DNA of 64,000 bases from Vermamoeba vermiformis (GCA_045837725.1 JBEWZL010000272.1:248001-312000), one strand, 5' to 3'. Counted from the stretch's first letter, positions 11,221 to 59,250 are shown. Notes: generated from the letters alone by a model not told the origin. Program-made: numbers and translations.

Positions 11221-14200
11221 TTATTTATTAGCAGGACATCCTTTAAGATAATGAATAGCTTCAAGCGCTACTACGTGCTCGCAATCATGCGGGGTCATAG
11301 CGATCAGAAGTGGCTTAGTGTAGCTGAATGACTTGTAGTTCAAATGAGGCAATCGGCACGTGGTCGAACCTTCCCCGCCTTTCTTTGCAGGAATTCGTCG
11401 GTACTCGGCCTTCTGATGCTTATTGACCTCCAATAATTCCGCTAAGATCTCTTTCGGCAATTCTTTTTCGGGCCATTCGCGTGGTCTGAATTGCGTTGGA
11501 ATTCCACAATTTGAACACAACGGAACAGCTTTGTAGCCTGTATTTTTCAACGGCTTCTTGCCAATGTTTCTCAACACGTTATTGATCTCCTCGATGACGG
11601 CAGGATTAAGTTGCAAAATTTCTTCAGGGATGGTCAATAACAACTCGTCTAGCTTGGCTAATATGAATCGCATGCACACTCGTTTGAGATTTAACGCGTT
11701 GAAAAAGCAGGCTGCGTCCAATAACGCACAAACATTCTCGCGAGCCACGCTCTTGAGCAACTCAGTCTCGCATCTGAAAACAGCATTAGACCTCATATTC
11801 ATAATAAAAGTATCACAGCCGCCGGTCTTATAATGAATCCTTAACGCGTTGCTTACCTCTTCTTCAGCTGTTCAAAATCGAAGATCGTAGTTTGACACAT
11901 CAAGTCAAACACTTTCTGCGTGTCATCAGCGTCAATCTGATCCGAGTAAGTATATCGCATGAGCTCTTTGAACAATTCAAAGTCAATTTCATCAACTGCG
12001 ATCTGTCGCTCTCGACTCTCACGGAATCGACCGCTGAACATGTTGTCGAAGTAGCTGCTGCGTGCTGCAATGACACAACGATGAGCGAACCACTTGTTGG
12101 TGCCTTCAATGATGATTTCAACATCTATCAACGCACATATTAGTACCAATTATATTACTTTTGTTTGGTGAAAGAAATTAGAAAGATTCAGTGACAGCGA
12201 ATTTTTCGAGTTGCTATATTAGGCAAAACTTACCGCTGAACAATGGATTGTTAATGCCCCACGACAAGTCGCTATTGAGAGTGGAGGTCGGGAAGACTAA
12301 GGTAGACCTATAATGATATGTTAATATTGCTATATTAGCGGATCTCATATGATGACTTACGTTGAAATGCCCGTGCAAATTCTAGCGAGTTGCGAGAGCT
12401 GGAAGTATTGTGCGAGAGGCAACAAGTTCATTGCATTTTGAGGCGTCAAAGTGACACGATCGGAGTACAAATACTCGAGCTGAAAAGAAAAGTGTCAGAT
12501 CCAGAATCAGTCAAAATATTTCCTTATTAGGAAAGTGCACGTTAAGAGTTACGTACCATTTGCTTGAAAGTGTTATAATCGAATTCTTCTAAATAAATAT
12601 CGCTGTGTTGATTCAAAAAGATTTTGTGCTCGTCTTTGTCTTTTTGTTCCTCTTCGATTTGTTTTTCTTCTTCAGTCATTTCTTTATTATTATTCTCTTC
12701 TTCATCTTTCAATAAATTTTCAACTTGATTTGCTTCGTTTTCATTTTGAGATTGATCGGGATTTTCATTATGTTTGTTGATAATTTCTTGGCTGGCTTTC
12801 AATTTATCCGCTGATCTTTGTTTGTACTCGCCAATAACTTCTTGCGTAATTCGGCGAATTTCTTGCGGGTCAGTAATATCTTTAATTCGCAAAAGAATTC
12901 TTCTGAACGGGATGGATCTCGCCGCCAAGACGATCTTGTGCGCATCGATCTTTTGGTTATCAGCAAAGTGCAAAGTGACATCACAGTATCGCTTATTATT
13001 CAATAAGCCCAACAATTCTTCACCGATCTTTGATGCGAATGTTTCTAAACGCAGTTAGAATTTTTTTTCCAAAAAAGGAAATTTCTTCGACTTGTTGCAC
13101 TTACCGGTGGATTTCAAGTTTCTCAGCACGTGGATGTCGCGTCTTTTAATGACTTCATTGCCTACCATAGTCTCGTCTTGCGTACCAACAGCTTTTTGTG
13201 TGGCCAAGAAGTAGATCTTGTCGTCAACCAAAGCCGAGCAATGTAGACCACTAATGTACTCGCTCTATGCATACCTCATCAATATCATATTCAATATAGA
13301 GTCTAGCTAGGCACTTACGACAACTTCTTCGTGATCTTCGACGTGTTTGACTTTAGGTTGGGTGACAATATTACCAGCAACACTGACACCATAAGCACGC
13401 TTAGAAACTGAAAAAAAGGTTAAAACGACATTAAATTAGCTTATTAAATGATATTACTTGGTTCAAGAATGAAGACAGTGTTCAAAGTAATGTTCTTGCT
13501 CATGCCACCGAAGATAAAAATGTTAGATCCGACCAAGTGCGCGGAGTGGTAGCTCATTGCAGGCAAGGTTCCCTTAACTATGTCATATATAATTGGTTAG
13601 TACTAGGCATCTATACGATTCATCATAACAAATCAAGTTCGTACTTTCGATTTGGCTCCAGGTAAAGTTCCTCATAGAGAAGGCCCAAATGTCATTCAAC
13701 TCGACGCCATCTTCGTGGACACCTCCGATAATAAACAGAGTCTATTATAGCGTTAATAGGTATGGACTATTGAAGAAGCACGTGGGACTTACGTCTAAAG
13801 CGGGATGATAAACGGCTGCGTGTGCGTGACGAGGGGCAGGTTTGACGGCGCCTTTACCTGGGATCTTGATCTCTTCGACGGACAAGTAAGTACCAGTATG
13901 ACGACGTCGAGGTAAAGACGGGTGAGTGGTGGCTAACAAAGAATACGTATTAGATAGGGCAACGGAAGAAATGATGTTCGAAAGCAGATTTGGATCGTAC
14001 TTTTTCGTTTCCACGTAATCTCGTACAAGGCATTAGATGAAGTGTGTTTGGTCATCTTTCCACCAAACACAATCATTCTAGTGCCCACATTAGTCGTCGT
14101 GTGATAGCTAAGGGCTGGCAAGGTGCCTTCAACTCGTTTGTCAGACCAGTGATCTTCCCAATACTGCATAATAACCTAAAAAATATTCGTTAAATACGAA

Positions 14201-19676: not shown

Positions 19677-20830
19677 TTATTTGATATTGGTTGTATGTTT
19701 TTGACGCAAACGCTTCAGTACTTCAATGCACCGCTTCATTGTCGGTCTGTTGACTGGATTTACTTGACAACAATCGTGCACGAGCCTTCTGAACTCACTA
19801 TCGCTAGTCATAGTAGCTGACGAATCAAGCATCCCATTGATTTTGCTATGAAGTTCAGTTGAGTCTCTGGTCGTTGGCAAGTTTTTGCTGCTCGTGGCCA
19901 TTACAAGCAACACAATTCCGAATCTAGAGAGGTTAGATTAATTAGAATAGCTTCCTATTAACCTTATTTACGTACGAATAAACATCTACGGATTCATTGT
20001 AGCCGTCACCGTCCACTAGCTCGGGTGCGAAGTAGCCTAATGTGCCACCTTGAAAAGTCTTGGCCACGGAGTTCTTGTTCAGATATCCCGCGGCACCAAA
20101 ATCACCGATCTTCGCTCGTGCTTTATTGTGATATAACTGCAGAAAGTACATTAGTAACTAATCATAGGGCAATTTATGACACGTGTCAGTGACCACCTTA
20201 CCAATATATTAGCGCACTTGAGATCACGATGAATGATCTTCGGAGTGAGATTGTGCAAGTAGTTCAAGCCCTTAGCGACATCCAGGGCCAGTTGGATGAC
20301 TTGGTGACGGTCTAACTTGACATGGTGTTTGAAAAGTAGGTCTTGCAGTGACCCGTGCTTCATGTACTCCATCACGAGCATGATCTCCGTTGTATCTGGC
20401 TTCATCGTCGTGCCCATCGATAGCACCACGTGCTTGTGATGGAGTCGCCTGCCAAACCAAAATGTCAAATCAAGTGTCAAAATGTCATTCACTCGTGTCA
20501 TTCGAGATCGACTTACATCACAGTGCGTGCCTCGTGAATCAAGATGTCAAGCTTTCCAGTCTCAATGTCTGCGACTTTGATGCCCTTGACAGCAACGTTC
20601 TGGCCGTGCCACTGCGCTTTGAACACTTCGCCATAGCCTCCTGCACCAATGCTCTCTCCGATCGTCAGTTCATAGTACGGGATATCGGTGTTATTGTTCC
20701 GCTTTAACTTTTCGTTTTCTTCTTTGAGTCGCTTGATTTCTTCGTGCAACCGCTTATTTTCGTATCTAAACAAGGCATTTTGTTGCTTTAGCTTTTCATA
20801 AGGCTCGTTGTTCTGGTTTACTTCTTCCAT
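19677..20830 (-). CDS. Tyrosine-kinase-like (TKL) protein kinase with N-terminal coiled coil
   Basis: GAGGYGEV, VAVK, HRDLKCANIL, GDFG, GTLGYFAPE, DVYSFG and RPTM across 4 exons. Confidence 0.93.
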
Positions 20831-25926: not shown

Positions 25927-28490
25927 ATGTTCTTCGCTCATCACTTGGAACAAATCCAGCAGGCCAACAAAAATATTCAAAGCGCGCACAACAGTATATC
26001 GATTACGCCCATCATATTCATTAAACATGCCAAGGACGGCTGGAAAGTGAATGAAGAAGCGATCTCAATTCTTTCGAAAGTGAAGAAGCCCCTTAAAGTT
26101 CTTGCGGTTACACGTAAGGAAAATATAGTTGTCATGCAAAATCTAACCTCAATTAGAACGTTTCCACTCAGGATTCATCTCGCGTCATATTGCGAATAAA
26201 TTTTTGTCATTGCAAGGTGGATTTGATCTACAACACTACATAGTAAGTCCACTATTACGTTCAACACTATGCTAATTAATTAATTAAAGCGCTCAAGAGA
26301 TATTTGGATGTGGGGAAAAGATACGGGGAACGAGATCGAGCTAGTTCTTCATACGGAAGGATTCAACACAGATGACAACACTACTTTAGACGCTCAACTT
26401 CTTTCATTGGTTTTATTGCTTAGTTCACATGTTACGTTAAATATTCCCGTCATGCAATATAGACCAGCTGAGGTAACTGACCAAATAAGATTTCAAACGT
26501 ATTGCACTTAATTATAAATATTGATTTATGTCTCAAGATATGTCACAAAGTTGCCAAAGATCATTTTTGTTGAAGAAAGCAACGAAGATGAAGATGATGA
26601 AACTTTTTACAAAGAAATATTCCCACCTGTCATGTTTTTGGTGCAAGACTTTGCTGTTCCCTTAGAAGATGGGAAAACACTAGATGACTATTTAGCTGGA
26701 TTGTTAAAACAAAAACCTGGATTGTCCCAAGCTATTCGGGAGAGAAACAATATTCGAGATTGTATTTGTCAATATTTCTCAGAACTTGGTGCTATGGCTA
26801 TCCCACAGGTATAACCTGTACATATGAAAAAGTCAATAACTAAATTTGCTGTAGAGTGACCTCTTCTGTGAGAGAGCTGAAAGATTCCATGAAGCAGTTG
26901 ATGACACATGCTCTGTTCTTCATAAAAAATTGAAAACAAAGAAACTCAAATACATGAATGGCAGTGTTAGTATTGCTGATGGGGAAGGTTAGTCATCTCT
27001 TTATTCGTCCTGAATGTAGTGCATTAATCCATTCAACAGAGTATCTTGAATTGACCAAAGCCATAGTTGAATGTTTGAATGCAGAAGGAAAGATTGAAAT
27101 TCCAAAATTGGCCAGGGCTGTGCTGGGAAAGAAGCACATCAAACTCCTTGTGGATGAACCTCAAAAGAGTGGTTCCAACCATTCTTTTGCACAAGTTGAA
27201 GAGTTGGAAAAAATTATCAATGGCAGTAATTGGGATGAGCTAGCAAGGACTTTGCAACAGAATTGCAGCAAACAAGTGATCCCAGTTATATATCCCATCA
27301 ACCTCAGTTTGAGCACCAAGATGTATATTGACAACCTTGCCATCAATTCACTAAAAAGTTTGCTCCATGAAATTCATAAACAAAGATTGATATTAGAAGA
27401 GCAACTTGATGCTAACAATGTGACACTAGGAGCATTGCAGCATAGGGAAGATGAATTGATGCAACAACTCCTAGAGGTTCGAGCAAAGATTGAATTGGTA
27501 AAGAAGACAATTCAGAAGCAAACAAATAACCTAGGAGATAATGCTTATTTTGAAGATAATCTAAATGAAAATATTCAAAAATATCAAGAGACACTGAAGA
27601 AAAATGAGTTGGAGCTCAAAAAATGCCAAGAAACTTTTCAAACAGACATTTCAACCTGGACTATTGAAGATGTAGTGTTATTTTTGAAAGAGATTGATCT
27701 TGGGCAATATTTAGCTTCATTTATATCAAACAACATTGATGGCTCTGTGCTTCAACTACTTGAAACAAATGATTTGATCTCTGCTCTTGGGGTCTCATTC
27801 AAAGACACAAAGAAGTTATTAATGTACATTTACTTGATTCAAACCCATCAGGACATCTACACAATACCTCCAGGAGTGCTGCAATGGAACAATGAAACTT
27901 TGTGTACTTGGCTTGAAGATAACAAGTTTGGTCACTTAAGTACTGTCTTTAAGATGAATGAAGTAAGTGCTTACATGTTAGATATAAAGTATTAATTGTA
28001 ACTTTTGCAGATCACTGGAGCTGAGTTTGCTTTCTTGGAGAAATCTGATCTGATTGGTCAGCTGCAAATAAAAGCACTAAGTGACGTCATAAAACTCCAA
28101 AAAGAAATATTAAATCTCAAGAACTCAATTCAAAACGACAAGCAGCAAGCAGAAATCAAAAGAAGCAATAACAACAATTTATTGACCAGTCAACTTGAAC
28201 GTAAACTTGAGGAAGTAACAAGGTTCAACGAAGAGCTCAAAATAACTCTCAGGGAGCGAGGAGCAAAGGTACCAGAGGCATTTTTATGCCCTATTTCTCA
28301 GGATATAATGAACGACCCAGTAGTTGCCAGTGACGGCTTCACATACGAGAGGGATCAGATTGAAAAGTGGCTGAAGAACAATAACAGATCTCCTATGACT
28401 GGAGACCAATTATCGAGCAAGCAACTTACGCCATCGCACACGTTGAAGAGCATGATTCGAGAGTTCATTGACACAAACAAGAAGCAATAG
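25927..28490 (+). CDS. Degenerate guanylate-binding-protein (GBP)-like domain + coiled coil + 2 SAM + U-box E3 ligase
   Basis: GBP-like: VNEEAISILSKVKKPLKVLAV, DIWMWG, LHTEG, DAQLLSLVLLLSS, FPPVMFLVQDF, LDDYLAGLL...RDCICQYF. SAM: WTIEDVVLFL and WNNETLCTWL. U-box: PEAFLCPISQDIMNDPVVASDGFTYERDQIEKWL. The true start may lie further upstream. Confidence 0.85.
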
Positions 28491-34945: not shown

Positions 34946-37900
34946 ATGCTAGCACGAAATATTATACTCGCTTTGTGCTTTTCAGCAGTGCTTTTTACTT
35001 CAGGTTCGTATTACTAAGCTGAACGCGATCTGCCTCATACTTGGTACTAATTTGCTTTATATAGTATATGCCATTAGAGAACAAGTCGACTTGAGCATTA
35101 GCGCAGCTATGCCTAGTCAGCAATGCCAAGCTACAGCTTACCAACGACCTTGCATTAAATTTGACGGATCTGCGGTGCCCGACTATTACCCGCCTGATTA
35201 TCCTTGCCCTTGCCCCGCTCTTGGTGACAATAGCGGTTCTTTTATTGGCCGCGGCAAGGGTACCACGCCCAATGCTTACAGCGACGAATTTCAAGACGTA
35301 GTTCTTGCCGACGGCTTCGATCGCCCGGTCAATGTGGCTTTCACTAAGGACGGCAAGTTCTTCGTCAATACTAAGGCTGGACAAGTCTGGAAGGTCGATA
35401 GAGCCACTGGCCAAAGGACTTTGTGGATGGATATTACCGTAAGTGATATTAAAGCTTTACAAAAATTAAACTTTTCAAAGACTTTACACGCCAGATCTCC
35501 AACACTTCTACAGTTATTTTTCCGAACATCTGTTTAACTTATACACATAGTATTAATATATCATGATAGGACGAAGTAAACAGCTCTGGTGATCGTGGAC
35601 TTTTGGGCATCGCTCTCGATCCGGATTACCCTAACACCCCTGAGATTTACTTCTGGTACACTTACGGTCAAGCTGGTACGTGCAACAAGTCTGAGTATAC
35701 ACATAGAAACAATTTCCGTTTTTAAAAGTGATATATTGCGATGTACAATACGGAGACTAATTTTGTTTCGTTGCGGATGTAGCTGGCGAAGAAGACTATT
35801 CCGCTACAATGACTCGTCTTATTCGTGTTACCGAGAAGGACGGTGTTGGTGATAGAGCTAACTACTTCATTCTCTTGGGCCACACTCCTGCTGACTCCAT
35901 TCCTGTCTGCTACAACACTCATGCAATCGGATCCGTCAAGTTTGGTCATGATGGCTCTCTTATCGCTTCTATTGGTGAAGGCGCTCATTGGGACTTCCCT
36001 AATGGTACGTATAAAGTATTCAAAGTGCAACCCAATCGAGTTTTCTCATAGATTTTGCTGCGCTAACTACAAACACATCCGCAGCTGAAAATAAGTTAGA
36101 AATCAGCCCTTTTTCACTATTATATTGTCGTGTAGTATATTAGGATCAAATTGAACAAAAATTTACGCCTTTCTTTCATGAAAATTGAGTTTGTTTTCTA
36201 ACGTGGATTTTGCAGGTGACTACGGTCAAGATGTTATTGCTACTGATCCCTCATGCGGCCAAATGTTCGGTGCTGTTGAAGATATTGGTAGCTTCCGCAG
36301 TCAATCTCTTAAATCTGGTGGTGGCAAGATCTTGCGTCTCGATCCTCGTACTGGCCAGGGAATCTGCGCTGGCAACGATAAATTCGCCGTGCCTAACCCC
36401 TTCTGCGACGGCAACCTCGACTCTTGGGCATCTAAGATTTGGGCTCTCGGTGCTCGTCAACCTTTCCGTATGATGGTTCGTCCTGCTTTTCCTGGAGACC
36501 AAATCCAAGGTCCTGGTACAATCTACTTTGGTGACGTTGGCGAGGGTGGCTACGAAGAGGTTAACGCAGTTACTGCTCCTGGTCTTAACTTTGGCTGGCC
36601 CTGCTGGGAAGGTAAGTTCGAATCCATTTCAATTTTCAATCTTTACGATCGAGATCTCGATGCATGTTGCTAAGCATGAATTAAAATTAGGTCCCTTGCC
36701 TATGGTCAAGCATCGTGATAGTCCTCTCAACACTGACCCGACCACTAATGTCTACAAACAAGATCCTAACCTTTTGTGCCCCTACATCTACAACAACGTT
36801 ACTACTACCACGCCTTTCTTCTTCTATTCTCGTTATGGTCCTGGTGATAGTTACGCCAACGTGCACGACAACGCATACCTCGGCCAAGGTTTCATTGGCA
36901 ACACAGTCACCGGTCTTGCTTTCTACACTGGATCGCAATACCCCGCTGCTTATCAAAATGCGTTGTTCGTGCTTGACTACGGTCAAATGTGGATCAGAGC
37001 CCTCAAGGTCGACACTACTGGTGGCAGCGATATTTACCGAGGCGTTATGGACTTTATGGTTATTGGCAAGCCGATCACGACTTTGGAGATCGAGCCTGAA
37101 GAAGGCAACTTGGTCTATATTACCTTATTAGACGGTGCTATTCGTATGATCAAGTACGTTGGTGTCAACAACCCTCCTGTTGCCCAAGTCAGCGCTTTCC
37201 CTTCATCCGGTGTTGCTCCTTTGACCGTCCAATTTACCTCCGACGGATCCATCGACAAATTAGGCAATAACGTCACTGCTCTCTGGGACTTCGGAGATGG
37301 CTCCGAGACTTCTCGCGAGTTCAACCCCGTTCACGTCTACCAAACTCCTGGTGTCTTCACCGCTGCCTTTTCCATCACCAACAGCAAGGGCATTACGACT
37401 TCTACGACCATCACTATCAACACTCAATATGCTGCCCCTGTAGTCAAGATCACCTCTCCGACCACCAACAACCAATTATGGCACTACGATGTCGGTCAAA
37501 CTGTCAATTTTGCCGCGACAGTTGAATCTACCGCTGCCCCAGCACAACTGCAGTACGTGTGGTCTGCAACACTCGCGCACGAAAATCACTTCCATCCTGA
37601 CGCGTACACGACCACTGCTCCTACTTTTTCAGCTGTTCTCAGCGACGTTGGTAGTGAAGTTCCTTCTCGAGAAGTCCGTGTCAATATGTTCGTCACATTG
37701 GCTGTCACTGACGTCAGATCTGGTCTCGTGGGCTACGACTCAATCTTCGTGGCTGAAACTCCGGGCGATTGGTTCGCAAACACACCTCCAAACCCTGCCT
37801 TCAGCATCACTTCTGGTGACCCTGTTCCCAACAAGCCGATCCAATTCGACGCTACTGGTACTTCGGATCACGAGTACGACTCGATTTTCTATACTTGGGA

Positions 37901-38282
37901 CTTTGGTGATGGTTTGCCTCCTGTTCGTTGGGGCATTGACGAAGGTTTCTTCAACCCCTTGTTCATCACGCACACCTACAATCAGACTGGCCTCTACACC
38001 GTTACTTTGACTACCACTGACAACTACTTGACAAGCAAGTCTATCTCCAAGGTGATTGGTATTGGTGTTGCTTCTCCTAGTGGACCGACTTCGCCTCAAA
38101 CTCCCGCATCCAACACTCCTCAAGTTCCAACCACTCCCATCAGCGATGGTGGAAACTCTCCTTCAGTCATACAAACTCCTATTAGCGATATTCAGCACAA
38201 TGGCCCTCAAGGCTCATCTGGTGCTACCCAAATTACAATCAACGCAATTTTGGCGATCTTGTCTATCGCTCTGCTTTTGTAA
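34946..38282 (+). CDS. Secreted, probably GPI-anchored glucose/sorbosone dehydrogenase-like (GSDH, PQQ-type) beta-propeller with PKD domains
   Basis: Signal peptide MLARNIILALCFSAVLFTSVYA. GSDH motifs: GDRGLLGIALDPDY, HAIGSVKFGHDGSLIASIGEG, GGKILRLDP, WALGARQPFR, YFGDVG..GYEEVN, NFGWPCWEG. Two PKD domains (WDFGDG). Ser/Pro/Thr stalk and hydrophobic C-terminus. Confidence 0.88.
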
Positions 38283-38475
38283 ATAATACGGACCAAATCG
38301 ATCTTCCTGAGGGATCTTCATACTTGTAAATATATTATAAAATAATTAATTATTTTTAAACATACAAACTTGCTATTTTCTTTTCGGGAGATCAACGCCA
38401 ATTTACTGGGCATTTGATTGTGGCTTACTAGATTGAACTGTAAAAGTTGAACTAATCTAGATCAAATAACCAATT

Positions 38476-40081
38476 TTATTGGTTATTATTATTATTATAG
38501 AGGAAATCAGTAGCGGCATGATAGCTCTGCAATGCATTTGCTGAATGATTGACGTACTTATATTCTTCTTGGCGTGGGATATCGGGGAAATCAATAGGCT
38601 CTATATGAACGAATAGTATCTCTTGGCTTAAGCCTGCTAGAATATAGGCTTGAATCTAATTATAAGATTGTTTAGCGAACGGCGATCTGGATGTACCGAA
38701 AAATCTAACGATTGTATTAATGATGATGCTCAGCGTACCTTATGGTGTCCATCGATCAAGAAGCAAACATTATCCATTTTAACTGTTAATACAGCTGGTC
38801 GAGCGTCTTGCTTGATCTGTTCTACGTAATAATCGACTCGGCTTTGATTTAATAAATCTGATGGTTGCGTAAAGTAAACTTGCAAGTGATCTGCATAGTT
38901 GTCTATACATCGATTAAAAGTTAAAACAGATCTGGTCAAACAAAAAAGTATAATTGAACCTACTTTCGACTTGATTCAAATCCGTTGAGGAAGTATAGTC
39001 GAATGTGCTTATCATATACTCTTCCCTTTCAACGGTAATTCTATAGGTGCCGCTCTGCATGCACTTCAAGAATGGCGTTAATTTTTCTGCCAGGACGCTT
39101 AGATCCAGAACTGGAGCATTCAAGTACGACTCTACGAAACGAGTAAATAACAAAATTTGTAAAAAAAAGTATCAAAATGCGTACCAACAGTTTGGGTAAT
39201 ATGACTGATTTCTTGTTTTGTCAGAATTTTGGATCGTACTAGACATCTGAAAACCGAACCAGCATTATCGTTAAACGATGCAACAATTGGCTACAAACAG
39301 GTTAAATCGTGTATTACATACGACTATACGTACTTTTCCATTAAGTTTAAGGCCTTGAATATTTCCTGACTCGAGTTCTAACAACCCTTCGCCGTCAACG
39401 ACATCCACTTGTTCGCCATAGCAGTTAGGTCTTCGTTTTAAGTACTTAGAGTATTCCAATCTCTTTAGGGATGCAAAATACGGAGCGGAAGAGTTGGAGT
39501 CTACTTCTGAAGACCAGATTCGATCTGAAGTTAGCTCTTTCAACCAAGATTTCGAAACAGTCGCTACTGAACTCGCTTCTTCGATAGTCAATCGCTTAAA
39601 TATCATATACATAAGAACCTCTTTTGGTATTATCGATAATTTGCCCAAGTCCGATTGAATATCAGATTGACGGATGCGTTGTGACACTTTCAGATCCTGT
39701 GCAATATTATTAAAGCGATCAGAAAAAATATAGAATAATAATATATATAATATATATATTACAGACTATTCCCTATTAATATCTATATTGCCTGTTACTT
39801 ACGTCGGGTAAGAATTGATAGTTTGCCAATGTTTCTAAAACACTTTGGCCCGTTTCGATTTTATATTCCCTAAGCTTTTCAATGCTAGTTCCAGGTAATT
39901 TTTTCTTAAGAAATGCTCGCAAAAGAGTTTCTTTTTCGACCGTCAGAGGATCTCCCTAATAAAGTTAGATTCGTTTAATCTAAATCACCTTTTTGTTATT
40001 ACTTACAAATCGGAGGTCCATGAATTTTGCTGTAATTGCTTCGTTCAGTTCTGACACTATTTCTTTGTACAAAGCCTCCAT
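38476..40081 (-). CDS. F-box protein with C-terminal ParB/sulfiredoxin-like domain
   Basis: F-box: LSIIPKEVLMYMIFKRLTIEEASSVATVSKSWLKELTSDRIW. C-terminus: TQPSDLLNQSRVDYYVEQIKQDARPAVLTV...FLIDGHHK/IQAY. First exon MEALYKE at 40081. Confidence 0.72.
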
Positions 40082-41682: not shown

Positions 41683-42211
41683 CTGCGTTGTGTCTATTCA
41701 GTCTGAAAAAAAAGCTATACTGACCGCTCGTACCGTTAGAAAATTTAAATTTCTATTTTTGGAAACTCATACTGTAACGCACAAGACAGTTTAAACTTTA
41801 AAGCCGACAAAAAGGTATATAAACAAGACCTCAAACTTTCAGTACTATAGGTTGCTATTTTACTTGAAGCCGAAACAGATTTTGGTACCTAATCGGATGT
41901 GGTTACGTTTGGTGGTTACATGCGCTTACATTTTGGACCAATGTGACCTTGTTGAGCTCAACGAGTGCTAGTACGACTTCATTTACGATTACGGCCTCAT
42001 CTATGATGAGTAGATCAATGACCAGTACGGATTGTTTCCTGGTAATGTTTCTACGAATTTTGTTGCCAAGTGCTCTTCATCTGGATTGAACAAAAACTTC
42101 TTAGCGTGTTGAACTAGCGCATCTAATTCCCCTAAAAATCAAATTTACCTCGTTAGTTGATCGAAAACTAAAGATCTCATAAACCGCTCGATCTGACGAA
42201 ATTTAAAATTC

Positions 42212-44316
42212 TTATAACTTACCAGAAAAAGGTCTATATATATGGGTAGGTATCTTATCTCGTTCCTCACGTCTATTCAATACTTTATCAACTCTTCCAA
42301 CGGCAATCGGTCGATGATTTTCCGCTAATAATACTTTGCCATCGTAATTCTTTTGAAATTCCGAAGCTTTGAACGGTTGTATGCATATTCGAGCATAAGG
42401 CCACATTATTCCGCTAAAAACTTTCAATTGTTTTGCGTCTTTTTTGTTTTGGTACTTTTTTTGCGGGAAGATCCAGATCAGTCTGCATTGAAATTTTAAC
42501 CCGGCGTAATATAGCTTATATGACCTCATCTCATTTAACATTGAGCTATCTAATACCACGAATTTGCATCGAAATGCAATGGTGTACGGTAGGTGCTTGA
42601 AATTATCGTGGATTATGGTCTCTTTGTTCGGATTGAATTTTTTTCTGAAGTGCCAATCACCGATGTCCTTTAATGTCAAGCCTATATAATCGCCTGCGAT
42701 AAGAAAATGATTAAAGCGGGATCCAAGGAAAAGAAAAAATTCTGGAACCACCCAACAACAATTACGAGCATTGTCTCGAATCAATTCATAGGTATTATTA
42801 ATAATGAAATATTAATAATGAAAAATTTGCTAGTTTGATAAAATTGATAAAATTGATAAAAAAAGATCGTACCTGCAACAGCGTGGTCCGTACTATTGTG
42901 CAGTATTTCGATTCTCTCAACAGTTGAATGTAGCGTATGGTGACTAAGAAATACTTTATCGTTGACTCGAACGTTGCCCGCTGTTACGATAAAAAAAATA
43001 AAAGTCAGCAGATCCGGATCTGAATTTTTTTTCGTTCGTAATTCAAAATATGCAAAAATCGTGAGTATAACGCATATGTTCTTATTAAATACCGATAGTG
43101 GTAATAAAGCACTTACACATGACTCGTCCGATATAAACGAATGAAGTATTTGCGACAGCTGGCCGTAATTTGTCGTAAAGATGAATCTGCAATTTTTCTT
43201 TTCTTAATTTTTCCACGAAATTCTCATCGTAATTTGTTCGATTTTGACTGGCACGCAACAACGTTAACAAACTATCGCCGTTGAACCAACCAAACTTTGC
43301 ACTTGTTCGCGTCAAGTTCGTGCCACGAATTGCATCCACGGGAATAATCTCGAAACAAGGTCCAATTGCCTTATTTAGTATTTCCGATAAGTAATTCCGC
43401 TTCTCGTAGAAAACTGAAAAAAATTCAAACCGTTAGATCCGGACCCAAAAAAATCGATATGAAGATACCGCTTAATTTCCAAATATGGTAAAAATGGTTA
43501 AAGCCGACGGCTATTACCTTTTTCAGCAGTTTTTGAAGTCGAATCTAAATTAATAGCAATAATAACGTCTCTTGAACTCATCATGTGACAGATCCCAACG
43601 ATTTTGTTAACATCGATGTTATCTTCAAACTTTTCATATGCACCATATACTAATACACATAAATCGGCCTATAATAAAGTCAATATCAATTTTAATGTGC
43701 CACATCCGCAACTTACCTGAAACGCGCGAACGAGGTACTCATGATGCCCTTCAAATAGGGTTATGGTCTGTGGTTTATTGCGCATTGAAAGCGTTGTATT
43801 TTTTATAATTAATTTTCTTTGGTATTTAGGCAATATTCGAGTCGGTTCTTCAGGTGGAGTTAACGCCATCCGAAACAAATTTTTCATGCACGAAGTAACG
43901 CCTACAAAAAATCAAAAATTAATAAAATAATTAATATAAATTAAGCAGTATTTAATTGAATTGACTTACCAGCCAGCGGACCTAATCCGCAAAAAAGTGC
44001 GTTCAAATGATCATCTACAAGCCGAATCTTTCGTTTATGTTCGAGAAGGTACTGGCAAACGTCTCGAAGTGATTTATTGGCTCGTGCAGCATATGCTAGT
44101 GATGTTCGTGATAAGTTGTAACAAATTGCGAACAAGATCTACGAAGGTCTTTAGAAAACAAAAATAAAATTTAAATTCAATAAATTCCAACGTGATAAAA
44201 AATGCAATATAATTGTTAAAAATAGTGTAGAAATAAATAATTAAGACCAGAATAATTTATAGCTCAATTTAACGTACGTCTGATGGCAAATCTGACAACA
44301 GCAACGTAGATTCCAT
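42212..44316 (-). CDS. F-box protein fused to a degenerate eEF1A/HBS1/eRF3-like translational GTPase
   Basis: F-box: LSDLPSD/ILFAICYNLSRTSLAYAARANKSLRDVC. eEF1A-collinear segments: HLNALFCGLGPLAGVTS, TITLFEGHHEYL, ADLCVLV...EKFE, VIIAINLD, IIPVDAIRGTNL...WFNGDSLL, AGDYIGLTLKDI, ICIQPF...GKVLLAENHRPIAVGRVDKV. Confidence 0.75.
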
Positions 44317-57659: not shown

Positions 57660-57767
57660 GCTATTACATACATAAAATTTTGTAGATGCGATTTGGCTTA
57701 TTCGCTTTTGAGGGTACAATCATACAATAGCAGCTTTATTGATAAAATAACATTGCATAATACGCGC

Positions 57768-59250
57768 TTAGTAGCGAGTCGGTGAGACGTACTTCGCATC
57801 TGAGATCGAACAAAATTAGATCCCGTACAATAACGCAAAACATTTCGTGGCAAGACTTACCATCAAGTACTTCTCTAACGGCAGGGGATTGGCAACAGAC
57901 GTACACATCGTTGTTCATATTATTCTTAATCTTCTTATCAGCACCGCCCTTGAGCAACAACTTAACAGTGGAAATATGGCCACGACTGGCAGCTTTGATC
58001 AAAGGAGTATTACCTATAGGATAATTGTTAGCCATATGTACCTGAAAACTTTTAAAATAACGGCTCTGTATCGTCGCGTACTGGAAAATTTGACCGTCAA
58101 ATTTCAAATTTTGAGTGTCAAATATTTGTAGCCTACTTTGAATGTACAAACAGGCGATATAAGATTATTCCCATTTTATTAAAAACGGTACCACAAAAAT
58201 TTATCAGAAACTTTTTCGATAATTTTGGTAGCGGTGTTACTTTTGTCAAACACTCGCTAAATTGTTGGCTCTTGCTTCAGTTAGTAGGACTATGGAAATG
58301 CCCACTAATTCAGCAATAGCAATCGCGCAACTTGTCGTCTAAGAAAAGTTTGTGCGGTTCCAAATTATCAAAAAAATTTATGAAAAATTAGAAGTGGTGC
58401 CGTTTTTAGTAAAACGGGAATAATATTGTATTCAAATACTTTACCATCAGCATCTCTAGCGTTAATTTCGCACTTGGCGTCGTGGATCAACCAGCTTACG
58501 ACATCATCCTTTCCTGCAGAGTTAAGCACAATTAGGCTTATTATTCAAGGCACAATAAGTATATTATTTGCTAATTACCGTTAAATGCTGCAAGATGAAG
58601 AGGTCTAGAGCCAGCTGTATCAGCGAGCTCAAGATCTGCTCCTTTTTCCTTCATGAACTTAACCTACGCTCAAAATATTAGGAAAAATCCAATATATAGC
58701 TTCTTGTTGATGATTTGCACGTTGATTTTAAATTAAAGATTAAAATTAGATTGAGCGGCGATTATACATACAACTTCCAAGTGACCCCATTTAGCAGCCT
58801 CTGTTAAATTAACGCGTTATGACTCGTTTTTATAGTACAATAATATTAATGATGCTTACCACCAACAGCTGTCTTGCCTTGAACGTCTAATAACAAAAAA
58901 ACGATTAAGATATTTTTTTGGATTTTTTTGTTAGTATCTCAAAATAATATTTATAATTATTCTTGAACACGGGTACATCGTGCATTAATATTTTCGAGAG
59001 CACAAAGCAAATTTCCACGATGCCAAAATATTTTTAGTTTTACCTTGCGCGTTGATCTGTGTCCAAGTGTTGTCTAATCGCTTCTTTACCAAGTCCAAAT
59101 TGCCTATAAATTATGGTAAATATTTATTCGTTTAGATTTTTGTTGAAATGACACGAGTTGCTCGCATCAGCTGCTTAAAACAATTTTTCGCGAGATCAGC
59201 TTACCATCAGCGGCAGCATCCCACAGAGTAATTTTTCCCCACTGAGACAT
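57768..59250 (-). CDS. Small ankyrin-repeat protein (about 4 repeats, many small exons)
   Basis: Spliced: LWDAAADGNLDLVK, GKTAVGEAAKWGHLEVVKFMKEKGAD, GSRPLHLAAFNGKDDVVSWL, GNTPLIKAASRGHISTVKLLLKGGAD. Confidence 0.9.
58166..58422. mobile_element. MITE-like foldback element inside an intron of the ankyrin gene
   Basis: Left arm TTATTCCCATTTTATTAAAAACGGTACCAC versus reverse complement of right arm TTATTCCCGTTTTACTAAAAACGGCACCAC (27/30 identical); imperfect pairing continues inward almost to the centre; TA at both ends. Confidence 0.7.

Follow-up and report, generated by a model that had tools for sequence, protein, structure and literature searches.

An amoebal gene joining an F-box to an eEF1A-derived body that lacks recognisable GTPase motifs

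The window analysed here is a 64,000-nucleotide (nt) stretch of the Vermamoeba vermiformis assembly (GCA_045837725.1, JBEWZL010000272.1:248001-312000), and the locus at 42001..44316 within it is a real and intact spliced gene of an amoeba-like eukaryote, in which an F-box is joined to a body derived from the translation factor eEF1A. The gene has eight exons and encodes a protein of 516 amino acids (aa), composed of the F-box, an eEF1A-type body whose G motifs are dead, and a C-terminal tail. It belongs to a small family that would have arisen by duplication and fusion and whose members would act as receptors of the SCF (Skp1-Cul1-Rbx1) ubiquitin ligase; we regard this reading as a whole as probable, though well short of assured. 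An earlier note, made from the sequence alone, had proposed a fusion of this kind.

Gene structure and the F-box

The gene lies on the minus strand. Reverse complementation and a scripted check of the boundaries gave eight exons and seven introns, every intron being GT..AG, and the eight-exon reading frame is open for 1551 nt. Statements about the whole spliced window protein come from script computations on the joined exons and from relatives of the protein. The exons are as follows.

Exon 1, 44278..44316, minus strand: ATG and first half of the F-box (M..LSDLPSD); donor GTACGT, phase 0.
Exon 2, 43970..44138, minus strand: second half of the F-box, family-specific helix YLLEHKRKIR and degenerate G1 region CGLGPLAG.
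Exon 3, 43717..43901, minus strand: remnant of switch I and degenerate G3 (TLFEGH opposite IIDAPGH), as placed by alignment.
Exon 4, 43518..43668, minus strand: core strand of the G domain (ADLCVLV) and degenerate G4 (INLD opposite NKMD).
Exon 5, 43117..43413, minus strand: end of the G-like domain (IPVDAIRGTNL..WFNGDSLL), family-specific linker and start of domain II.
Exon 6, 42873..42980, minus strand: middle of domain II, inside the 40-bit match to the eEF1A hidden Markov model (HMM).
Exon 7, 42223..42693, minus strand: end of domain II and whole domain III (AFR, WIFP, FQKNYDGKV, AVGRVDKV).
Exon 8, 42001..42131, minus strand: conserved C-terminal helical extension of 43 residues; stop TAG at 42003-42001.

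The most informative relative is P0007, a complete open reading frame (ORF) of 618 aa from a Vermamoeba vermiformis transcript assembly. By blastp the window protein matches it over residues 7-408 with 27% identity (E=4e-48) and again over residues 412-506, and exon 2 falls within the match that begins at residue 7. The earlier note had ended the gene at 42212, and the corresponding seven-exon version, from 44316 to 42212, is open for 476 codons. That end is an in-frame TAA inside intron 7, three codons past the donor, and exon 8 was thus missed. Intron 7 has its donor GTAAGT at 42222 and its acceptor AG at 42133-42132 (phase 1). We consider exon 8 real because the sequence is conserved in relatives across the junction: P0006, an ORF of 96 aa taken from a public assembly, shares 57% identity with model residues 421-514 (94 aa), P0007 is 35% identical over window residues 412-506, and alignments to the exon 8 region likewise include the tails of P0007, P0002, P0011 and P0004.

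The F-box motif is split by intron 1, with LSDLPSD in exon 1 and ILFAICYNL... in exon 2, and it is therefore complete only after splicing. In relatives the counterparts of exon 1 start with ME.. and have LPNE directly before an intron at the same place, while exon 2 aligns with the N-termini of four relatives, among which ILEHK.KIR is invariant. P0007 exceeds the Pfam cut-offs of both F-box (24.1 bits vs 20.5) and F-box-like (25.6 vs 24.3). We then considered the 12 near-full-length members, which fall into five clusters at 90% identity. An F-box-type Pfam match at E<=0.01 is present in 8 of the 12, at least one F-box-bearing member occurs in each of the five clusters, and the motif LPxEIL...L....V.K is kept in all five. 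The remaining four of the 12 (P0151, P0153, P0155 and P0166) have unrelated initial residues followed by ...ILI... right after the expected LPNE; they are taken as unspliced forms because the breakpoint coincides with the position of window intron 1. The position of the intron inside the F-box is thus common to the window gene and its relatives. The presence of the F-box in five clusters and this shared intron position are the best support available for counting the F-box exon as part of the gene. The in-frame splicing of an N-terminal F-box to an eEF1A-like body, as first proposed, is supported by the window gene and by full-length relatives carrying both parts in one ORF.

Further support came from Logan contigs of one run (X1), which is RNA only by guess and whose short contigs are 95-99% identical to the window. 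Two of them skip precisely intron 3 (48 nt) and intron 4 (43414-43517, 104 nt), with CT..AC on the plus strand, and exon 3 is found joined to exon 4 in an X1 contig. A third contig spans 42246-42476 in exon 7, where six differences are listed: five are synonymous and fall at third codon positions, and the remaining one replaces Met with Leu. Because of these intron skips and synonymous differences, a close relative appears to make the spliced form, with the frame under purifying selection. The gene is therefore at least partly spliced and expressed. The raw-read RNA runs X4-X6 gave 1, 1 and 0 reads at the locus, too few to test expression.

The eEF1A-derived body and its lost GTPase motifs

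When compared with an HMM of 101 eEF1A sequences, the joined protein scores 40.5 bits (E=1.7e-12; HMM positions 138-312, residues 156-336), while the best of 200 shuffles of the same protein reaches 0.7 bits. Signals from single exons are weaker. Exon 5 alone has PDB matches to S. pombe Hbs1 (E=0.013), aEF1A (0.021) and CysN (0.11), each of them falling at the collinear position, the end of the G domain, and exon 6 alone matches Pfam GTP_EFTU_D2 with E=0.25. Pfam gave no match for the single exons other than 2 and 6; exons 3, 4 and 7 singly had no meaningful match among PDB sequences, the low-scoring rows being chance. Exon 7 had no usable match in the protein atlas, and P0007 had there only leads below 0.9, all of EF-Tu type.

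Among the relatives, P0007 matches Pyrococcus aEF1A with E=1.7e-25 and yeast eEF1A with 5.9e-16. Its domain II (PF03144, GTP_EFTU_D2) lies over the 30.3-bit cut-off with 35.7 bits, and so do those of P0011 (35.7), P0141 (36.3), P0020 (31.9) and P0162 (31.6). By sequence, domain III (PF03143 / PF22594) remains sub-threshold, P0002 having 17.6 bits for GTP-eEF1A_C vs a cut-off of 27.

We examined the GTPase motifs by aligning the window protein with five relatives and six eEF1A sequences, and placed them a second time by HMM alignment. Both place the degenerate motifs where the earlier note had put them:

G1: eEF1A GHVDAGKST; window CGL..GPLAGVTSC; relatives LVLTLPS..
G3: eEF1A DAPGH; window FE-GH; relatives RPPNK, EPPIE, TASNE.
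G4: eEF1A NKMD; window IN-LD; relatives VDLH, IDLS, IDMR.

In fact, GxxxxGK[ST] occurs nowhere in the window protein and in none of six family proteins, vs 100 of 101 eEF1A sequences. Neither DxxG nor [NT]KxD is found in the G region of any of the six family proteins, while each is present in 101 of 101 eEF1A sequences, and no family member that was scanned matches Pfam GTP_EFTU (PF00009). Between G1 and G3 the window protein has a stretch that cannot be aligned and has about 25 residues fewer than that of eEF1A, and the switch I/Ser53 segment has no recognisable counterpart in it, so the description of that segment as deleted is a fair one. Judging from these motifs, the window protein probably binds no nucleotide, and it cannot act as a GTP-driven tRNA carrier.

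As for structure, we modelled P0007 with AlphaFold2 from a 40-row alignment in which 16 rows were eEF1A. The model (predicted local distance difference test, pLDDT, 74.7; predicted template modelling score, pTM, 0.70) consists of three short N-terminal helices, a three-domain body, a long helix formed by a Lys-rich insert, and a helical tail. In a Foldseek search of the PDB, aEF1A and eEF1A rank first (7csl_A, E=7.9e-26), with target template modelling (TM) scores of 0.59-0.67. Structures in the GTP form or bound to a partner (aEF1A-GTP-Pelota, ribosome-bound eEF1A and eRF3, apo Hbs1) reach a target TM of 0.63-0.67, and GDP forms about 0.40. This weakly suggests a compact, GTP-like domain arrangement in the model, a shape that AlphaFold2 may favour. 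The 156-aa exon 7 of the window was likewise modelled (37-row alignment, pLDDT 77.3), and all 50 matches listed by Foldseek, with ranks to 50 and duplicate chains omitted, are EF-Tu-type domain III (best E=4.6e-5), including those of eRF3, eEF1A and EF-Tu. A match to the EF-Tu/eEF1A fold had been set beforehand by the earlier note as the check on its reading, and it was obtained for both models; together with the alignments and the 40.5-bit HMM match, it agrees with the claim that the body is collinear with all three eEF1A domains.

We inferred the parent from a profile of six family proteins searched against the PDB. The profile scored 103.5 and 94.5 bits with aEF1A, 83 with yeast eEF1A, 74 with mammalian eEF1A, 53.7 with archaeal SelB, about 39 with EF-Tu, 37.9 with eRF3, 35.5 with Hbs1l and 32.9 with CysN. 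On the basis of these scores, and among the factors compared, the parent is an eEF1A/aEF1A-type factor. Longer local alignments may be the cause of one archaeal aEF1A ranking above the eukaryotic eEF1As. Hbs1 and eRF3 were rejected as parents, their scores being far under those of aEF1A and eEF1A; of the eEF1A/HBS1-type body originally described, the eEF1A part is thus retained and an HBS1 or eRF3 origin is not.

The family and the genomic neighbourhood

With exon 7 as query, phmmer was run exhaustively against 1.84 billion representatives and returned 18 matches at E<=0.001, of which 17 are related clusters (best E=1.2e-22). The remaining one, P0016, a bacterial Cna_B repeat protein with E=1.6e-4, was dropped as spurious after a Pfam scan. 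Longer proteins were sought with exon 7 in a word-index search, without a match; the same kind of search with P0007 found four more family proteins, followed by ordinary eEF1A at about 1e-16, and cluster look-ups added further members. A MAFFT alignment (A2) misplaced the short window exons 2, 3 and 6 and was excluded from all counts. Within the 64-kb window, tblastn found no paralogue. Relatives were not found in viral contigs (one scan), and two scans of metagenome contigs (A5 and P0137) yielded no confirmed relative. In public data the family is so far restricted to a narrow lineage of Vermamoeba-type amoebae including Vermamoeba vermiformis. Public pipelines call some of its members "translation elongation factor EF-1alpha" or "hypothetical protein". 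One short relative, P0017 (161 aa), is entered in NCBI nr as a hypothetical protein of the cyanobacterium Brasilonema sp. CT11 on a contig of 2,954 nt; this contig is most likely eukaryotic (amoebal) rather than cyanobacterial.

Identity among the members is 27-60%. Members of three clusters (P0160/P0161, P0009/P0169 and P0018) are located on the same Joint Genome Institute (JGI) contigs, of 608,359 and 576,630 nt; the family is therefore multi-copy within one genome, with paralogues possibly close together. Genomic ORF calls for P0004, P0012, P0013 and P0138 continue through an intron whose position corresponds to that of window intron 6. The most conserved motifs of the family are WIFP, FEKNYxGK and the C-terminal tail, none of which is an eEF1A motif. 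Many members, including P0007, P0019, P0141 and P0020, also carry a Lys/Glu-rich insert of 60-90 residues in domain III, which is predicted to form one long helix (residues 460-495 in P0007). The insert is missing from the window copy, P0001-P0003 and P0021.

The genes around the locus (SAM/U-box, PKD, BTB, kinase, ankyrin and F-box-like) show no functional link to the fusion gene. Two genes downstream, at 39271-39765 on the minus strand, lies a second F-box-like ORF (Pfam F-box-like 20.5 bits, E=4.2e-4, below the cut-off), the remainder of which is unrelated to the fusion gene. At 26958-28490 on the plus strand, an ORF with a SAM domain (52.7 bits) is followed by one with a U-box (80 bits), together an E3-ligase-type gene whose closest database relatives are at most 58% identical; the few bases between the two ORFs are probably a short intron. 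A long plus-strand ORF at 36000-38300 contains two PKD domains (97.6 bits) and a Ser/Thr/Pro-rich tail, and its region is the most G+C-rich of the window (0.479 vs about 0.38 elsewhere). The minus-strand ORFs at 12542-13054, 20151-20546 and 57736-58164 carry a BTB domain, a protein-kinase domain and ankyrin repeats, respectively, and represent ordinary eukaryotic content.

Proposed function and alternative readings

The mechanism that we favour begins with an eEF1A/aEF1A-type factor that would have been duplicated and then fused to an F-box. The F-box would dock on Skp1 of the SCF ligase, and the nucleotide-free eEF1A fold, held in one conformation, would serve as the substrate-recognition module. 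To our knowledge, the partner of each eEF1A-family paralogue characterised to date is tRNA, a protein shaped like tRNA (eRF1, Pelota/Dom34) or the ribosome, and for this reason components or clients of the translation machinery would be the likeliest substrates. The earlier note had suggested eEF1A-binding factors or ribosome-associated substrates as possible targets. The article text of a translational GTPase survey similarly describes EF1-family duplications as specialising in the binding of tRNAs or tRNA mimics such as eRF1 and Dom34 (PMC4342817). In a speculative extension, to which we attach little probability, the compact GTP-like body would dock in the places used by eEF1A, eRF3 or Hbs1, at the ribosomal factor site or on a tRNA mimic such as eRF1 or Pelota, and so bring SCF to stalled or foreign translation complexes; the family, with its multiple copies and fast divergence, would then be a form of amoebal surveillance or defence directed at translation.

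The protein can be compared with four types of known systems. First, with eEF1A and aEF1A the family is collinear from the G domain through domains II and III, but the window protein is without the P-loop, DxxG, NKxD and Pfam GTP_EFTU, and it adds the N-terminal F-box and, at the C-terminus, a helical tail of about 55 residues; many family members, though not the window copy, further differ by the Lys-rich helical insert in domain III. Second, Hbs1, eRF3, Ski7 and GTPBP1/2 are likewise duplicated eEF1A-type bodies that acquired a new N-terminal module and became quality-control adaptors, but their N-termini are not F-boxes and they retain the G motifs. Third, F-box proteins of the FBXO type share the layout in which an F-box of some 45 residues stands at the N-terminus and leads straight into a distinct recognition domain, which in the window family is a translation-factor fold. 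Fourth, as in nucleotide-free pseudoGTPases, the fold of the G domain would be kept and its nucleotide motifs lost, the domain serving as a protein-interaction module; the familiar pseudoGTPases are small Ras-like or Rho-like domains, whereas the window protein corresponds to a three-domain translational GTPase. F-box receptors and eEF1A paralogues are each well-studied adaptor routes, and in the literature covered by our searches their combination was not found described. In particular, full-text searches pairing F-box with eEF1A-like, pseudoGTPase, Amoebozoa and similar terms returned, within that coverage, no description of an F-box/eEF1A-type fusion, in keeping with the earlier note's statement that none was known. 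The word "F-box" does not occur in the article text of the survey, although its supplementary tables, outside this coverage, could list such sequences (PMC4342817).

Several observations weigh against an SCF receptor with an eEF1A-type body. Regarding the F-box, exon 2 alone gives a weak Pfam match (F-box_4, E=0.016), P0007 is the only member to clear the Pfam F-box cut-offs, seven further relatives being sub-threshold (E=1e-4 to 3.5e-3), and a profile of the family N-terminus retrieved no PDB chain with an F-box at E<=1. Regarding the body, no similarity to G domains is detected in exons 3 and 4 alone, and the AlphaFold2 models are corroboration of the sequence result and not an independent test of it, because eEF1A rows were present in both alignments. 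The domain II of the window copy is moreover the most diverged in the family (IGGIGTVPVGRV to ANTSFVYIGRV), so this copy may have lost the partners of the ancestral fold. Regarding transcripts, X1 is RNA by guess, introns 1, 2, 5, 6 and 7 are spanned by 0 reads from the locus, and the joining of the F-box exons across introns 1 and 2 is thus supported by homology and not by locus reads. Finally, docking on Skp1 and the class of substrates are inferred.

The weakness of the F-box signal in most members also feeds the alternative that survives best, which we consider unlikely but worth keeping in view. It holds that the F-box-like helices have a structural role, or that they engage Skp1 in a setting other than a cullin ligase, and that the protein is a GTP-independent competitor or scaffold in translation, for example at the sites of eEF1A partners. 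Some F-box proteins do act outside SCF, and the predicted completeness of the three-domain eEF1A-type fold would suit such a role. However, LPxEIL...L....V.K is conserved in all five full-length clusters, P0007 clears two Pfam F-box cut-offs, and the motif stands at the extreme N-terminus, as is typical for F-box proteins.

The divergence and copy number of the family invite another explanation, in which the body is a bait that mimics eEF1A, catches the eEF1A-targeting factors of intracellular bacteria or giant viruses and delivers them to SCF. Vermamoeba vermiformis hosts intracellular bacteria and giant viruses, and the family is multi-copy, strongly diverged, found on the same JGI contigs with several clusters, and limited to a narrow lineage including this species. 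A decoy should nevertheless keep the surface of its model, and here the G motifs and the switch I/Ser53 segment have either been lost or can no longer be aligned; the earlier note had already counted the apparent loss of the Ser53 segment against a decoy for Lgt in particular. The best conserved motifs of the family (WIFP, FEKNYxGK and the tail) are not those of eEF1A, the scanned viral contigs contain no relative, and evidence of positive selection is lacking. We therefore find this bait role quite improbable.

A GTP-regulated F-box function, in which non-canonical residues would retain a nucleotide switch, seems very improbable to us: the G-like domain does retain its core strands and overall fold, and three motif residues survive in the window copy, namely the His of DxxGH plus the N and the D of NKxD, but the P-loop occurs in none of six members, DxxG and NKxD are missing from the G region, and PF00009 is absent from every member scanned. 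The notion that a decaying eEF1A duplicate merely lies beside an unrelated F-box exon, with a joined frame arising by accident, is largely refuted and keeps scarcely any probability, for although exons 3 and 4 alone have no detectable similarity, introns 1 and 2 have no reads and three RNA runs have almost none at the locus (which is no test), the 516 codons are open over eight exons with canonical splice sites, transcript-derived relatives have the same architecture in one ORF, the intron position within the F-box is conserved, five of six listed differences from a close relative are synonymous, and spliced contigs exist for introns 3 and 4.

If the window protein does serve as an SCF receptor, a ubiquitin ligase would for the first time be seen to use a translational-GTPase fold as its substrate-binding module, and a natural nucleotide-independent eEF1A scaffold of this kind would allow one to ask what the fold itself recognises. 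The family adds a pseudo-enzyme branch to the eEF1A family, one not listed in the article text of the 2015 translational GTPase survey. Its multiple copies and rapid divergence make it worthwhile to test these amoebae for a role of the family in translation surveillance or in host-parasite conflict.

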